Positions 3,071 to 5,501 of a stretch of 7,478 nucleotides of DNA are shown in pieces (position 1 is the first letter of the stretch; each line of letters starts with the position of its first letter). The DNA lies in IMG/VR virus record IMGVR_UViG_2623620492_000002, positions 1 to 7,478 of that record; one strand, written 5' to 3'. The DNA is from a virus (Duplodnaviria > Heunggongvirae > Uroviricota > Caudoviricetes). The translations under genes and the position numbers were made by a program. The notes under the pieces are model-generated. The model was not told the DNA's origin and ran no database searches. It worked only from the letters and a program-made list of their open reading frames with translations.

Positions 3071-3493
3071 TCAATGCACTACAACAGAATCGTCGGACGC
3101 TCCACCACCGCCGAAATGCGCTTTACGGTAAACGGCCTGGACTGCGTCATCATGCGCATCAATTGCCGTACTCAACGCTTCCTGCGCCGCCAGTAATGCA
3201 CGGCGTTCCAGGGTATCGAAGATGCAGAGTCGGTGACGCAGCTCCCGCGGAAGGATTGCCAGAATTGCTGGGATCAGCTTCTGAATTTTTTCCCTTTGCG
3301 CTTCCGTTTCACCTTTTAACCAACGGCGATAGATGTTCTGCTGATTGTTCCAGTCCTTGCCTGGTGTCAGAGACAATTCACCTCCCCCCTGGCGCAGATA
3401 TTCTTCAGTAATTGCGTTAGCGACCCACGCCTGCCCTTTTTCGGCTGCCAGGGCTAACAGCACTGATTCGATGTGCTCATGCCTGATTTTCAT
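3071..3493 (-). CDS. YdaT-like protein (CII functional-analog class of Rac-type prophages), 140 aa
   Basis: ORF track 3071..3493. ATG at 3493 is preceded by AGGAG with a 7-nt spacer and overlaps the Cro-like stop by 17 bp. Size and position directly after the Cro-like gene match YdaT; the assignment rests on position and size, not a verified alignment. Confidence 0.6.
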   Translation of the reverse strand: MKIRHEHIESVLLALAAEKGQAWVANAITEEYLRQGGGELSLTPGKDWNNQQNIYRRWLKGETEAQREKIQKLIPAILAILPRELRHRLCIFDTLERRALLAAQEALSTAIDAHDDAVQAVYRKAHFGGGGASDDSVVVH

Positions 3494-3752
3494 GAATCAA
3501 CTCCTGTGTATTTTGTGTGTTAGCCTTACATCCAACAGGTAAACCGTCGGTTGGATTCGGGTAGATATCAGGCCGGAGTTCATGAGGTGTAACCTCGAAA
3601 TTCGTAGCCTCTGCGATACGCAATACCTTTTCGGGGCTTAACTGACTACGGCCAGTAGCTACGAGGCTAATCATCGATTGCGAACAACCAGCCAGAGCGG
3701 CCAAACAAGACTGTCGTACACGATTTTTTTTCAAATATTCATCTAATGTCAT
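3477..3752 (-). CDS. Cro-like HTH regulator (YdaS/Cro class), 91 aa from ATG 3752
   Basis: Track ORF 3477..3791, but the ATG at 3752 has an SD (AAGGTGA, 5-nt spacer) while the ATG at 3791 has none. HTH-like segment QSCLAALAGCSQSMISLVATGRSQLSPEKVLRIAEAT. Divergent from the repressor gene. Confidence 0.65.
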   Translation of the reverse strand: MTLDEYLKKNRVRQSCLAALAGCSQSMISLVATGRSQLSPEKVLRIAEATNFEVTPHELRPDIYPNPTDGLPVGCKANTQNTQELIHENQA

Positions 3753-3780
3753 AAGGGTCACCTTAGTAATGCTCGCCAAA

Positions 3781-3809
3781 ATATTAACCATACTAATTTA
3801 AATGATCAA
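3781..3809 (-). promoter_or_regulatory. PR-like promoter for the cro-like operon (minus strand): -35 TTGATC, 17-bp spacer, -10 TAATAT
   Basis: Read on the minus strand: TTGATC (forward GATCAA 3804-3809), 17 nt, TAATAT (forward ATATTA 3781-3786). Predicted start near 3773 gives a leader of about 21 nt carrying the cro SD. The -35 is embedded in TGATCAATA, a motif also found at the PL-like promoter. Confidence 0.45.
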
Positions 3810-3822
3810 TACTTATATCAGT

Positions 3823-3850
3823 TTGAGATTATGAGCTGTGTTCATAAGAT
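3823..3850 (+). promoter_or_regulatory. PRM-like promoter for the repressor gene, predicting a leaderless mRNA
   Basis: -35 TTGAGA (3823-3828), 16-bp spacer, -10 TAAGAT (3845-3850); a start 7 nt downstream coincides with the A of ATG 3857. The repressor ATG has no properly spaced SD. Confidence 0.35.
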
Positions 3851-3856
3851 GGTGGT

Positions 3857-4321
3857 ATGAGAAGAAAACGCGAAGAAATCGCATCGCCAGAAGCTACGCA
3901 GCGTCTACGCGGAATCTGGGATGCAAAAAAAAGAGAGCTCAAACTGACTCAGGAGCTTGCTGCCGAGCTAATGGGCTTTGAGACACAATCTACGGTTAGC
4001 CACTATCTCAACGGAAAGGCTCCACTTAACACTGATGCGGCATTAAAATTCGCAGTATTGCTAAGAGTTAAGCCTGAAGACTTGAGGCCTGATTTAGCTG
4101 ATCTGATGAATTACGTCCGTTCCTCTGGAACTTATGACGAAAGTTTCGAAGGCGAAGGGTGGCGGATGGTTAACAAGCAACAAGCTGATTTACTGGATCT
4201 TTTTGATATCCTCCCCGAATCAGAAAAAGCAAAACTAATCGAAAGGCTTAAAGGCCAGAATGAACTCTACAAAGAAGCGTTTGAAAATATGCTGGCAGCT
4301 CAGAAACGCATGAAGAAATAG
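3857..4321 (+). CDS. Prophage repressor, cI/RacR-like XRE-family HTH protein, 154 aa, no S24 peptidase domain
   Basis: ORF track 3857..4321. HTH motif LTQELAAELMGFETQSTVSHYLNG. Divergent from the Cro-like gene and followed by an intrinsic terminator. No Ala-Gly/Ser...Lys autocleavage module is visible in the C-terminal half. Confidence 0.75.
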   Translation: MRRKREEIASPEATQRLRGIWDAKKRELKLTQELAAELMGFETQSTVSHYLNGKAPLNTDAALKFAVLLRVKPEDLRPDLADLMNYVRSSGTYDESFEGEGWRMVNKQQADLLDLFDILPESEKAKLIERLKGQNELYKEAFENMLAAQKRMKK

Positions 4322-4343
4322 CTCCCACTACCTCGTAACTAAA

Positions 4344-4366
4344 CCGCCATCCCTGGCGGTTTTTTT
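4344..4366 (+). terminator. Rho-independent terminator after the repressor gene
   Basis: CCGCCA (4344-4349), loop TCCC, TGGCGG (4354-4359), then a T7 run (4360-4366). AAA upstream could make it partly bidirectional. Confidence 0.65.
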
Positions 4367-4462
4367 ATCCCCTCCGCCCCCATCACCTTACTTTTTTATC
4401 AAAAAAAACACTAAAATTTTCATTAGGATAGTACATTTTTATCAATAAAATGCATATTTGTG

Positions 4463-4491
4463 TTGATCATCAATATGAATATAACTAATAT
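4463..4491 (+). promoter_or_regulatory. PL-like promoter for the rightward early operon: -35 TTGATC, 17-bp spacer, -10 TAATAT, overlapping a TTGAT-C-ATCAA dyad
   Basis: TTGATC at 4463-4468 and TAATAT at 4486-4491, the same hexamers and spacing as the PR-like promoter. The inverted repeat TTGATCATCAA (4463-4473) and further ATCAATA copies (4441-4447, 4469-4475) are candidate operator half-sites. Confidence 0.45.
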
Positions 4492-4557
4492 TATTACAGA
4501 AGCAGCACGGCGCTGTAGGTTTTAGTTCCGCCACCCGGCGTTAAGGGGAGAGATAAG

Positions 4558-4692
4558 ATGGTACATTACGAAGTAGTTCAGTATTTGATGGATTGTTGCG
4601 GTATCACTTACAGCCAAGCTGTACAGGCTCTACGCAGCAACGACTGGGATCTCTGGCAGGCAGAAGCCTCTATCCGCAACAACAAAATGTGA
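4558..4692 (+). CDS. Small protein, 44 aa, first gene of the PL-like operon (YdaG/YdfB size class)
   Basis: Absent from the ORF track (too short). ATG 4558 is preceded by AAGGGGAG with a 7-nt spacer; stop TGA 4690-4692. Product MVHYEVVQYLMDCCGITYSQAVQALRSNDWDLWQAEASIRNNKM. The track ORF 4593..4784 in another frame is probably spurious. Confidence 0.5.
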   Translation: MVHYEVVQYLMDCCGITYSQAVQALRSNDWDLWQAEASIRNNKM

Positions 4693-4702
4693 GGTGCGAA
4701 AA

Positions 4703-4855: not shown

Positions 4856-5044
4856 TCCATTATTTGGATTAATTCAATATTCTCGCTGTAGGGGTATAGC
4901 CGAGGCCACCAAAGCCCGGAGGTGGTGAAATAAAACCGGGCACAACACGAAGGCGCATTTCCGATATCCATAAAGAGTCGGTCTTGTCTGTTAAATTTAA
5001 ATGGTGGGAGTGCGCCTCCGGTTGTGAATAACAACACTGCTGTG

Positions 5045-5100
5045 TGTAGTCTTGGCGGCATCAGTTTTTTCTTGAAGTTCGACTGATGTCCGCCCTTTTT
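5045..5100 (+). ncRNA. dicF: DicF-like small RNA ending in an intrinsic terminator
   Basis: TTGGCGGCATCAGTTTT ... CTGATGTCCGCCCTTTTT: GGCGGCATCAG (5054-5064) pairs with CTGATG-T-CCGCC (5083-5094), followed by C plus T5 (5095-5100). The stem and T-tail match my recollection of E. coli DicF (GGCGGUAUCAGUUUU...GCCGCCCUUUUU). It lies in a 412-bp stretch with no credible ORF, between the small ORFs and the kil-like gene, as dicF does in Qin. The 5' end is not determinable from sequence. Confidence 0.5.
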
Positions 5101-5279
5101 AAAGTGAATTTTGTGATGCGGTGAATGCGGCTAAGCGCACGCGGAACAGTTAAAAAGCTATTGTCCTTCGTAGCAGAGTTATGGGTGAAATATCCGGCGT
5201 TAATTGTTAACTGGTTAACGTCACCTGGAGGCACCAGGCACCGCATCGACAAAATTCATTTGTAAAAATGGAGATAATT

Positions 5280-5501
5280 ATGATTGCTCATCACTTCGGA
5301 ACTGATGAAATACCACGTCAGTGTGTGACCCCTGGCGATTATGTTCTTCATGAAGGTCGGACATATATCGCCTCGGCAAACAATATTAAAAAGCGAAAAC
5401 TTTATATTCGTAACCTGACCACAAAAACATGCATTACTGACTGCATGATTAAAGTCTTCCTCGGTCGTGATGGTTTACCTGTAAAGGCGGAGTCATGGTG
5501 A
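5280..5501 (+). CDS. KilR-like small protein, 73 aa (candidate cell-division inhibitor); assigned by size and position
   Basis: Track ORF 5268..5501, but GGAGA at 5270-5274 gives a 5-nt spacer to ATG 5280, while ATG 5268 has no SD. Product [73 protein letters not shown]. Sits where Rac carries kilR, between the small ORFs and racC-recE. Confidence 0.55.

Follow-up and report, generated by a model that had tools for sequence, protein, structure and literature searches.

The interval from position 3781 to 4491 of the window, that is, of the whole 7,478-nucleotide stretch of viral DNA analyzed here, is quite probably an immunity region, wired like that of lambda, from a Rac-like lambdoid prophage of Escherichia coli. 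Judging from the sequence, its operators are most likely 17-bp dyads of the form TATKAR-N5-YTMATA, which overlap the PR- and PL-type early promoters flanking the repressor gene.

With 99.9% identity, the locus matches an E. coli prophage locus annotated with ydaT, an HTH regulator, ydaF, kilR, and recE. At least 80% of a 1.3-kb query spanning the immunity type is present in 75 of 5,426 complete E. coli genomes, and relatives of this type also occur in Salmonella, Hafnia, and other Enterobacterales. Our comparative set comprises approximately 130 related loci, including IMG/VR loci, with 24 to 25 distinct sequences used for variation counts. On the PR side we observe cro-like ydaS, cII-like ydaT, and O/P-like genes, and on the other side the repressor gene, a terminator, and the ydaG/ydaF operon. 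Pfam places both the YdaS (PF15943, E = 2.2e-10) and YdaT (PF06254, E = 6.7e-12) families downstream of PR, the ydaT product matches the CII-like phrog_163 (E = 2.6e-36), and a replication protein P and a DnaT-like protein are placed at the locus by Pfam and PHROG. The genes downstream of PL are annotated in the 99.9% identical locus as a ydaG/ydaF, kilR-type operon; the PL operon holds a DicF-like RNA, and an Rfam search of positions 3700 to 4560 gave no match. The genes and signals around the repressor are as follows:

3477-3752, minus strand: ydaS (cro-like), first gene of the PR operon (Pfam YdaS_toxin/HTH_3; phrog_35; RefSeq annotation of the 99.9% identical locus)
3823-3850, plus strand: PRM-like promoter of the repressor gene, TTGAGA-16 bp-TAAGAT (promoter scan)
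3857-4321, plus strand: repressor gene, 154 aa, with an HTH N-terminal domain homologous to lambda CI and a DicA-like C-terminal domain (Pfam HTH_3)
4341-4368, plus strand: intrinsic terminator behind the repressor gene (9-bp stem plus T run in the terminator scan; the stem is kept in relatives)

The repressor gene (3857-4321, plus) and ydaS (3752-3477, minus) are thus divergent, and the 104 bp between them hold the PR hexamers and the PRM-like promoter. In the PDB, residues 12 to 82 of the repressor match the N-terminal domain of lambda CI (3KZ3, 1LMB, and 3BDN; E = 2.5e-7 to 1e-5), and an alignment with lambda CI shows that the helix-2 Gln is retained, as is the Gln-Ser opening the recognition helix. 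The C-terminal 50 aa of the repressor share 30% identity with DicA of Qin (E = 8e-7). No Pfam match to Peptidase_S24, the domain needed for RecA-stimulated cleavage, was found in the 154-aa protein. The mRNA is probably leaderless, with a predicted start at the A of the ATG at 3857, as has precedent in paaR2 and lambda cI (PMC8630535). In relatives, the PRM-like -10 reads TAAAAT or TAGAAT at the same 6-nt distance from the ATG.

The initial annotation had described two early promoters, each reading TTGATC and TAATAT 17 bp apart, and both are present as described, on the minus strand (3809-3804 and 3786-3781) and on the plus strand (4463-4468 and 4486-4491):

3781-3786, minus strand: PR -10, TAATAT; predicted to drive cro-like ydaS, ydaT, and the replication genes; without variation across 24 distinct related sequences
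3804-3809, minus strand: PR -35, TTGATC; includes GATC 3804-3807; invariant in 8 lineages
4463-4468, plus strand: PL -35, TTGATC; includes GATC 4465-4468; variable in relatives
4486-4491, plus strand: PL -10, TAATAT; predicted to drive the ydaG/ydaF and kilR-type operon; invariant in 25 distinct sequences

This exact arrangement occurs only twice in the 7,478-bp window, and with up to one mismatch TTGATC-N17-TAATAT is found twice against 0.05 expected, a count that 0 of 200 shuffles reach. The likeness of PR and PL extends over 39 nt (3780-3818 versus 4454-4492, 72% complementary). In an ungapped alignment of eight lineages with repressors 65 to 100% identical, the PR -10 and -35 are the only fully invariant intergenic hexamers, and the PR copy of the composite promoter is found in every relative of this identity group (L002-L005, L021-L030). 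Across the 24 distinct sequences, G3804 in the PR -35 is replaced by T in two, corresponding to 3 of 34 IMG/VR loci, and at PL the -35 takes the forms TTGATT, TTGCTC, TTGATA, TTGTGT, TTGCTT, TTTACA, and TTGACT in relatives. The PR -10 is homologous in position to the TAATAT of K-12 Rac PydaS, which has been proven to be a promoter element by mutation (PMC9638921). Neither early promoter was listed by the built-in sigma-70 scan, since TTGATC/TAATAT agrees with the consensus at only 8 of 12 positions, one short of the threshold of 9; the calls rested instead on conservation and K-12 homology. Gene order, the invariant PR hexamers, and the homology to K-12 all fit the initial proposal of PR-like and PL-like promoters, and it is very probable that the two sites serve a lambdoid immunity region as early promoters of these two types.

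At both promoters we identified candidate operators as 17-bp dyads, given here with their half-sites and centers:

3782-3798, no strand: O1, TATTAA-CCATA-CTAATT; overlaps the PR -10 and spacer
3807-3823, no strand: O2 (tentative), CAATAC-TTATA-TCAGTT; its CAA complements the TTG of the PR -35
3801-3817, no strand: alternative frame for O2, AATGAT-CAATA-CTTATA; 4.7 to 7.2 bits
3830-3846, no strand: O3, TATGAG-CTGTG-TTCATA; overlaps the PRM -10
4421-4437, no strand: OL3 (weak candidate), CATTAG-GATAG-TACATT
4440-4456, no strand: OL2, TATCAA-TAAAA-TGCATA; includes the first ATCAATA at PL
4474-4490, no strand: OL1, TATGAA-TATAA-CTAATA; overlaps the PL spacer and -10

The operator frame was initially spotted by eye, partly on the window itself, and was later tested on other lineages. 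A matrix derived solely from O1 sites in distant relatives, with repressors at most 70% identical, ranks O1 first (14.65 bits) and OL1 second in the 7,478-bp window, while a matrix from five lineages with repressors 65 to 85% identical (L026-L030) ranks OL1 (16.8 bits), O3, and O1 (13.6 bits) first to third and OL2 fifth. O3 scores 15.6 to 16.7 bits and OL2 9.3 to 10.7 bits with matrices from other lineages. With the L026-L030 matrix, five sites of at least 10 bits are found in the whole window against 0.54 expected; four of them lie within the regulatory regions (0.17 expected), a number reached by 0 of 2,000 shuffles.

Conservation follows the same frame. In the 8-sequence alignment, 12 of 20 center positions vary, compared with 4 of 48 half-site positions (Fisher p = 1.8e-5), and among the 24 to 25 distinct sequences including IMG/VR loci, the mean number of variants is 4.7 in centers and 1.9 in half-sites (Mann-Whitney p = 0.001). 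Variation in O1 falls in the center and at the degenerate half-site positions; all five center positions of O3 are variable and its half-sites almost invariant; OL1 has near-invariant half-sites around a variable center; and OL2 averages 7.4 variants in the center and 2.25 in the half-sites. Five of the six bases of the PR -10 belong to an O1 half-site. The identity of the PR and PL hexamers follows from this overlap, as TAATAT equals the half-site CTAATA plus T and the TTG of the -35 equals an operator end. Of the initial proposal that operators lie at both early promoters, the overlap itself stands, now carried by the 17-bp dyads, and what does not is the choice of ATCAATA/TTGATCA as the recognition unit.

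The position of O2 is tentative, being ambiguous between the frame at 3807-3823, with its lambda-like geometry, and the better-scoring, 19-bp-spaced frame at 3801-3817. In the former the half-sites are conserved (mean, 0.5 variants) and the center is variable (4.6), and its distances to O1 (25 bp) and O3 (23 bp) resemble those in L002 and L019 and in lambda (24/23), but it is not a dyad and its matrix score is negative. The latter displays a variation pattern opposite to that of the secure operators, with a left half that varies in L026-L030. The same reversed pattern is seen in the OL frames 4455-4471 and 4449-4465, and all three frames were retained as alternatives only. OL3 scores 2.8 to 4.8 bits, with an offset of -53 shared by the window, L003, and L004; CATTAGGATAG is conserved, and OL3 displays no center-versus-half-site signature. 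The operator layout is not fixed within the family, given that the second OL site of L027 and L028 sits 19 bp from OL1, over the -35, where the 19-bp arrangement looks real.

The GATC that the initial annotation had placed inside each -35 is indeed there, at 3804-3807 and 4465-4468. Other promoters whose -35 or -10 includes GATC are known to be Dam sensitive (P1 cre, IS10 transposase, and dnaA P2), and such a site could make PR, and here also PL, Dam sensitive via RNA polymerase, or via the repressor if 3801-3817 is the true frame, coupling expression to replication or methylation. Besides the presence of GATC in both -35 hexamers, the non-consensus TC of the PR -35 is retained in 22 of 24 distinct sequences of the immunity type, in all 45 loci of the group with 70% identical repressors, and in L026-L030, and the repressor is without an S24 cleavage domain. 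Nevertheless, we consider Dam control of PR and PL unlikely. GATC is not enriched in the window (21 versus 28 expected); the PL copy is lost in close relatives (TTGCTC, TTGATT, and TTGATA), and none of the 45 loci of the 70% group has it (TTGACT); TTGATA stands at PR in 3 of 34 loci of the immunity type; and in the preferred operator frame the methylated adenines fall 1 to 2 bp outside O2. Moreover, an overlapping protein site can account for the conservation of TC at the PR -35, and promoter/operator overlap likewise for the PR GATC. No relevant publication on Dam, GATC, and prophage repressors emerged from a literature search. Slightly less likely again is the specific claim of a functional role for the near-invariant GATC in the PR -35, whereby its state of methylation would alter occupancy by RNA polymerase or by repressor/YdaS at PR and here also at PL; if true, it would constitute an epigenetic or replication-coupled derepression route for a prophage repressor that is not SOS cleavable.

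The words TTGAT and ATCAA also recur in a separate type of site, the YdaT box:

3483-3500, no strand: YdaT box, TTGATT-catgaa-AATCAG on the minus strand, spanning the ydaS end and the ydaT start; one mismatch to TTGATT-N6-AATCAA

The sequence TTGATT-N6-AATCAA is the footprinted YdaT site in CP-933P and K-12 Rac (PMC9986795, PMC11879457). The words at the promoters could accordingly be sites for CII-like YdaT, which in K-12 Rac protects the PydaS -35 and -10, a reading that we regard as improbable. In its favor, the half-sites of the YdaT box share the TTGAT/ATCAA core (PMC9986795, PMC11879457), a true box exists in the window at 3483-3500, and binding by K-12 YdaT extends to the racR-ydaS intergenic region (PMC11879457). 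Scanning for TTGATT-N6-AATCAA with up to three mismatches, however, gave no match at either -35 and only a 3-mismatch match at 4432-4449. Spacing and orientation are wrong for YdaT as well (a 1-nt spacer at 4463-4473; ATCAA-N17-TTGAT between 4441 and 4467), and the copies at PL are not conserved.

A shade less probable still is the initial reading of ATCAATA/TTGATCA, with TTGAT-C-ATCAA at PL, as the operator half-site for the repressor and a Cro-like protein. The words themselves are located as described: ATCAATA occurs at 3805-3811, 4441-4447, and 4469-4475, always on the plus strand, and the PL dyad at 4463-4473. The three copies are restricted to the two regulatory regions, and none of 2,000 local shuffles gives three copies of exactly ATCAATA; the PR copy is almost invariant; and distant relatives as well as K-12 Rac again have TCAATAG beside the PR -35. 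Over the whole window, however, three copies stand against 1.1 expected and are reached in 20 of 200 shuffles, TTGATCA is at chance frequency, and some 7-mer reaches three copies in 16% of local shuffles of these two AT-rich regulatory regions, which weakens the case for ATCAATA. The copies occupy three different registers of the conserved 17-bp dyads, and two of them are not conserved: at 4469-4475, the ATCAA arm of the PL dyad, the first five positions differ from the window in 2, 10, 15, 7, and 3 of 25 distinct sequences, and at 4441-4447 as many as 20 of 25 sequences depart from the window. ATTAA, ACTTA, or ACTCA replace ATCAA in strains with near-identical repressors, and the PL arm varies even among E. 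coli strains. The recurrence of TCAATAG at PR arises where the complement of the -35 (TCAA) joins the O2 half-site (CAATAG). The conserved and statistically supported elements are thus the 17-bp dyads, and ATCAATA would be a by-product of a -35 adjoining an operator half-site (TATTG/ATC) and not a recognition unit.

Least probable of all is that the AT-rich, ATCAA-bearing tract upstream of PL (4394-4456) is a site for IHF or another nucleoid protein that stimulates PL, like IHF at lambda PL: the tract is 33 to 37% GC and TATCAATAAAATG (4440-4452) is one mismatch away from WATCAANNNNTTR, yet the IHF pattern is at chance level in the window (8 found versus 8.2 expected), and 4440-4456 is conserved as a dyad with a free center that lacks ATCAA in L062-L065 (TATGAT-N5-TGCATA).

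The candidate 17-bp operators give the region a layout close to that of lambda, with divergent repressor and cro-like genes separated by three 17-bp sites. Measured from the repressor ATG, the operator centers lie at -19, -42, and -67, compared with -19, -42, and -66 for OR3, OR2, and OR1 of lambda. O1 overlaps the -10 as lambda OR1 and OL1 do, and GTGTTG closes lambda OR2 and OL2 and shares its TTG with the -35, a junction (GTGTTG/A) also found at PL in the window. In both systems a second operator set lies at PL beyond the repressor gene, the repressor mRNA is leaderless (probably so in the window), and the repressor N-terminal domains are homologous. The half-sites share TAT-A-, but those of the window read TATKAR and not TATCAC, and the OL spacings are 19 and 34 bp in the window versus 20 and 24 bp in lambda. 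Unlike lambda CI, the repressor carries a DicA-like C-terminal domain and no S24 autocleavage domain; the role of cII is held by the unrelated YdaT with its own box; and rexAB genes are absent, the terminator following directly after the repressor gene.

Gene content links the region to K-12 Rac, with ydaG, ydaF, and kilR on one side and ydaS, ydaT, and replication genes on the other, and a YdaT box at the start of ydaT (PMC11879457). In K-12 Rac, too, the PR -10 TAATAT is overlapped by an operator starting ATATTAG, and TCAATAG adjoins the -35. K-12 Rac bears ATATTAGGCGACGCCTAA and TGTCAATAGGC, and RacR footprints cover both of these sites (PMC9638921). Its operators, TTAGGC-N3-GCCTAA (PMC9638921), hold TTAG/CTAA cores 7 bp apart versus 5 bp in the window, and the K-12 -35 is TTGACA, without GATC. 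The K-12 Rac repressor is unrelated in sequence to that of the window (BLASTP E = 4.5), which, together with the core gap of 5 bp and not 7, speaks against placing the window repressor in the RacR family.

The PR and PL promoters of the cryptic prophage CP-933P of E. coli O157:H7 have the same -35 and -10 hexamers and the same operators, and PaaR2 and YdaS repress them both (PMC8630535). The window resembles it in the identical hexamers and shared candidate operators at PR and PL, the predicted repression of both promoters by the repressor and YdaS, the probably leaderless repressor mRNA, and the YdaT box TTGATT-N6-AATCAA (PMC8630535, PMC9986795). The CP-933P operators are described as four 18-bp palindromes with the consensus GTTTAGTAA, and PaaR2 heads a toxin-antitoxin operon (paaA2-parE2) of which the window has no counterpart. 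Qin shares with the window, besides the DicA-like C terminus and a repressor without a RecA-cleavage domain, a PL-type promoter with an operator in its spacer and a DicF-like RNA in the PL operon. The N-terminal DNA-binding domains of DicA and the window repressor, however, show no BLASTP similarity, and the DicA operators are of the TGTTAG...CTAACA type, unlike those of the window.

The sequence elements, with their statistics and pattern of conservation, were observed directly, as were the homologies of the proteins and the geometry; from these we infer how the switch would operate, including binding, the pairing of proteins with sites, activation, autorepression, and transcription starts. 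The repressor would bind the TATKAR-N5-YTMATA dyads as dimers. In the right operator, O1 would cover the PR -10 and spacer, O2 would abut or overlap the PR -35, and O3 would cover the -10 of the repressor promoter; in the left operator, OL1 would lie over the PL -10 and spacer, with OL2 and OL3 upstream of the -35. Repressor at O1 and O2 would shut PR, turning off ydaS/cro-like, ydaT/cII-like, and the replication genes, and repressor at OL1 would shut PL and with it the ydaG-ydaF-kilR operon. Bound at O2, centered at -42, the repressor could activate its own promoter, and bound at O3 it could repress it. Cro-like YdaS probably uses the same operators; this shared use is not assured, because in K-12 Rac YdaS failed to repress racR (PMC9638921). 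Operator binding by repressor and YdaS with repression of PR and PL has been demonstrated only in the analogous CP-933P and K-12 Rac systems (PMC8630535, PMC9638921).

These results provide a candidate operator map for a hitherto uncharacterized immunity type, in which a repressor joining a DNA-binding domain of the lambda CI type to a C-terminal domain of the DicA type appears to keep the lambda operator geometry almost to the base pair. The general understanding of such switches is left unchanged by that of the window. In practice, the map may be of use for annotation and for predicting superinfection immunity and cross-repression among Rac-like prophages.

The interval between the two early promoters is the immunity region of a Rac-like lambdoid prophage, as judged from its gene content (RefSeq, Pfam and PHROG) and from the terminator that follows the repressor gene. 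The E. coli OkiPb01716 prophage locus is 99.9% identical to the window over 3400-4700, and its RefSeq annotation lists replication protein P, a DnaT-like protein, ydaT and a transcriptional regulator on one strand, and an HTH protein, a phage protein, ydaF, kilR, a ydaE-like gene and recE on the other. Of 5426 complete E. coli genomes, 75 carry at least 80% of the length of this 1.3-kb stretch; the flanking sequences by themselves occur in >2000. Gene assignments in the window, made with Pfam and PHROG, agree with the RefSeq annotation:

1425-760, minus strand, lambda-P-like replication protein
2392-1214, minus strand, DnaT-domain replication protein
3493-3071, minus strand, YdaT (CII-like; phrog_163)
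3752-3477, minus strand, YdaS (cro-like)
3857-4321, plus strand, HTH_3 repressor-like protein
4341-4368, good intrinsic terminator 3' of the repressor gene

The composite TTGATC-17 bp-TAATAT is found twice, against 0.05 expected with at most one mismatch permitted: once on the minus strand (3809-3781), directed at ydaS, and once on the plus strand (4463-4491), directed at ydaG, with similarity between the two across 39 nt. Neither is listed by a consensus promoter scan, as just 8 of 12 consensus positions match. Homologous loci were gathered from GTDB genomes, metagenomes, IMG/VR and RefSeq. When eight lineages with repressors 65 to 100% identical are aligned without gaps, the only fully invariant hexamers of the ydaS-repressor intergenic region are ATATTA (3781-3786) and GATCAA (3804-3809), and all relatives in this group carry exact TTGATC-N17-TAATAT upstream of ydaS. 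The homologous PydaS of K-12 Rac likewise has a TAATAT -10, replacement of which abolished promoter activity (PMC9638921), and in CP-933P, where PR and PL have identical hexamers, PaaR2 and YdaS repress both promoters in reporter assays (PMC8630535). Because of this invariance and these experiments, the assignment of the two elements as predicted PR-like and PL-like promoters, put forward in the initial annotation, is well supported; its literal statements on hexamers, words and coordinates are all correct.

Several further features were seen around these promoters. Conservation of the PL leader (4492-4557) extends over different immunity types, K-12 Rac and Rac-SA53 among them. The leader contains a small stem-loop (4502-4516) as well as the motif GTTCCGCCACCCGGCGTTAAGGGGAGAG and has no match among Rfam families. 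Two Rfam matches in the PL operon fall under threshold, namely, DicF at 5041-5095 (42.8 bits against a gathering score of 48; E = 6e-7) and STnc100 at 5097-5287 (40.8 bits against a gathering score of 47). The 10-nt sequence ATAAGATGGT forms an exact direct repeat, with copies at 3844-3853, stopping 4 nt short of the repressor ATG (3857), and at 4553-4562, where it includes the ydaG start codon (ATG 4558). The former copy holds the ATG (3849) of a three-codon mini-ORF, ATGGTGGTATGA (3849-3860), which overlaps the repressor start.

On aligning relatives, a recurrent 17-bp dyad emerged, reading TATTAG-N5-CTAATA in distant relatives (e.g., TATTAGCAATGCTAATT in Providencia) and TATKAR-N5-YTMATA in the window's own group. 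The candidate operators on the PR side (O) and PL side (OL) are as follows:

3782-3798, O1, TATTAA-CCATA-CTAATT, covers the PR -10 and spacer
3830-3846, O3, TATGAG-CTGTG-TTCATA, covers the -10 of the repressor's promoter
4421-4437, OL3 (weak), CATTAG-GATAG-TACATT, 19 bp upstream of OL2
4440-4456, OL2, TATCAA-TAAAA-TGCATA, upstream of the PL -35
4474-4490, OL1, TATGAA-TATAA-CTAATA, covers the PL spacer and -10

These predicted operators are backed by two independent lines of evidence: the substitution pattern and matrices built without the window. A comparison of the window with five other E. coli strains, one Salmonella and one metagenome-assembled genome shows variation at 12 of 20 positions in operator centres versus 4 of 48 in half-sites (p = 1.8e-5). 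With IMG/VR included (24 to 25 distinct sequences), we observe 4.7 variant sequences per position in centres and 1.9 in half-sites (Mann-Whitney p = 0.001), and in the Rac-SA53-type sister group, whose repressor is 70% identical, variation is also located in the centres. A symmetrised matrix drawn only from O1 sites of relatives with repressors at most 70% identical gives the two highest scores in the whole window to O1 (14.65 bits) and OL1 (11.25 bits), in that order. A matrix from five lineages (repressors 65 to 85% identical) places OL1, O3 and O1 at ranks 1 to 3 and OL2 at rank 5; at 10 bits or more it finds 5 sites (0.54 expected), and in the regulatory regions 4 (0.17 expected), a result matched by none of 2000 local shuffles. 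An operator-like 17-mer of 11.2 bits, TATGTGTGGGGTTTATA, at 1759-1775 within the DnaT-like replication gene is probably a chance match. In two relatives with repressors 83 to 85% identical (L027 and L028), a second left operator (TATTAATATTGATAATA and TATGCATATTGATCATA) lies ~19 bp upstream of OL1, directly over the PL -35, whereas the best second left site in the window is 34 bp from OL1; the OL layout is thus evolutionarily mobile.

For the middle operator, O2, we prefer with modest confidence the frame 3807-3823 (CAATAC-TTATA-TCAGTT). It shows the right conservation signature (variants, 0.5 in half-sites and 4.6 in the centre), and its distances to O1 (25 bp) and O3 (23 bp) follow the family spacing seen in Rac-SA53 and Providencia, both of which have a clearly palindromic O2; in the window, however, it is not a dyad and its matrix score is below zero. 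The alternative frame, 3801-3817 (AATGAT-CAATA-CTTATA), scores 4.7 to 7.2 bits and is similar to the strong sites that L027 and L028 have 19 bp from OL1. Against this frame, variation falls in the half-sites and leaves the centre unchanged, and the left half is lost in L026 to L030 (repressors 65 to 85% identical). Whichever frame holds, a predicted operator overlaps the PR -35.

The operators had initially been expected to overlap the early promoters, which they do, and to consist of ATCAATA/TTGATCA, in place of which the conserved elements are the 17-bp dyads. The three copies of ATCAATA (1.1 expected) are reached in 10% of shuffles, three copies of some 7-mer arise in the two AT-rich regulatory regions in 16%, and TTGATCA and GATC counts are at or under expectation. 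The copies also sit in three different dyad registers: 3805-3811 joins the final two bases of the -35 complement to O2 positions 1 to 5, 4441-4447 is OL2 positions 2 to 8, and 4469-4475 spans the -35/OL1 gap and OL1 positions 1 and 2. The PR copy is nearly invariant, which the promoter and O2 together would lead one to expect. At 4441-4447, phages whose repressor is the same, or almost the same, have ATCAACA, ATCAACG, ATCACAA, ATCATCA or ATGATTT. In distant relatives and K-12, TCAATAG adjoins -35s reading TTGACA, TTGATT and TTGACC. The proposed PL dyad TTGAT-C-ATCAA is not under selection, since its ATCAA arm varies among relatives (ATTAA, ACTTA, ACTCA, AAAAC, AACCA and TATAC), differing from the window at its five positions in 2, 10, 15, 7 and 3 of 25 distinct sequences.

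Dam control through the GATC in the promoter -35s is improbable. The PR GATC is retained in 22 of 24 distinct sequences, in L026 to L030 and in 45 of 45 sister-group loci, exceeding what the -35 requires at positions 5 and 6; however, PR reads TTGATA in 3 of 34 same-immunity loci, close relatives have TTGATT, TTGCTC or TTGATA as the PL -35 and the 45 sister-group loci all have TTGACT, GATC is unenriched in the window, and the methylatable adenines lie just outside O2 in its preferred frame. The TTGAT/ATCAA words might instead be YdaT sites, yet the YdaT box TTGATT-N6-AATCAA is present at neither -35. A box with one mismatch to the footprinted CP-933P/K-12 site (TTGATT-catgaa-AATCAG, minus strand, 3483-3500) spans the ydaS stop and ydaT start codons, a placement over the ydaT start already published (PMC9986795, PMC11879457), and by analogy suggests a PRE-like, YdaT-controlled antisense promoter here as well. 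Two-mismatch dyads of this type occur at 344-361, 2544-2561 and 2731-2748, and with at most three mismatches there are 12 in total (5.9 expected; attained in 2 of 200 shuffles). An IHF site in the regulatory region finds no backing, the consensus occurring at chance level.

Residues 12-82 of the repressor match the N-terminal domain of lambda CI (PDB 3KZ3, 1LMB and 3BDN; E = 2.5e-7 to 1e-5), retaining the helix-2 Gln and the Gln-Ser that opens the recognition helix, and identity to DicA is 30% over the last 50 residues. The protein is a mosaic of a CI-type DNA-binding domain and a DicA-type C-terminal domain. Pfam detects no S24 peptidase domain, which rules out an autocleavable CI, and induction therefore presumably does not proceed via RecA-stimulated cleavage; a RacR-family repressor was ruled out by sequence comparison. 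The repressor's own PRM-like promoter (TTGAGA-16 bp-TAAGAT, 3823 onward) ends 6 nt short of the ATG at 3857, and relatives retain TAAAAT at the same distance, so the mRNA is probably leaderless, as are those of cI and paaR2 (PMC8630535).

In K-12 Rac, RacR-type dyads surround a TTGACA-17 bp-TATAGT promoter, CCTATTGACAATCAATTAGGCATTACCTATAGT, 3' of racR (~2140-2215 of the K-12 Rac locus, minus strand), with ATCAAT immediately 3' of its -35. This is an apparent PL/OL, of which we found no discussion in the RacR literature examined.

The likeness to lambda extends to operator geometry. Measured from the repressor ATG, the centres of O3, O2 (3807-3823) and O1 lie at 19, 42 and 67 bp; for OR3, OR2 and OR1 of lambda, as annotated, the distances from the start codon of cI are 19, 42 and 66 bp. 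In lambda, the GTGTTG at the end of OR2 and of OL2 shares its TTG with the -35, and the GTGATA at the end of OR1 and of OL1 overlaps the -10; the counterparts here are GTATTG/ATC and GTGTTG/ATC at the -35s and CTAATA/T, which makes up the -10s. This overlap explains the hexamers shared by PR and PL, the -10 being five-sixths operator half-site and the -35 being welded to an operator end. We found no published description of this operator set in the literature on such switches examined. The principle is textbook, and close analogues have already been dissected experimentally; the switch is of the lambda/Rac/CP-933P type with a new specificity.
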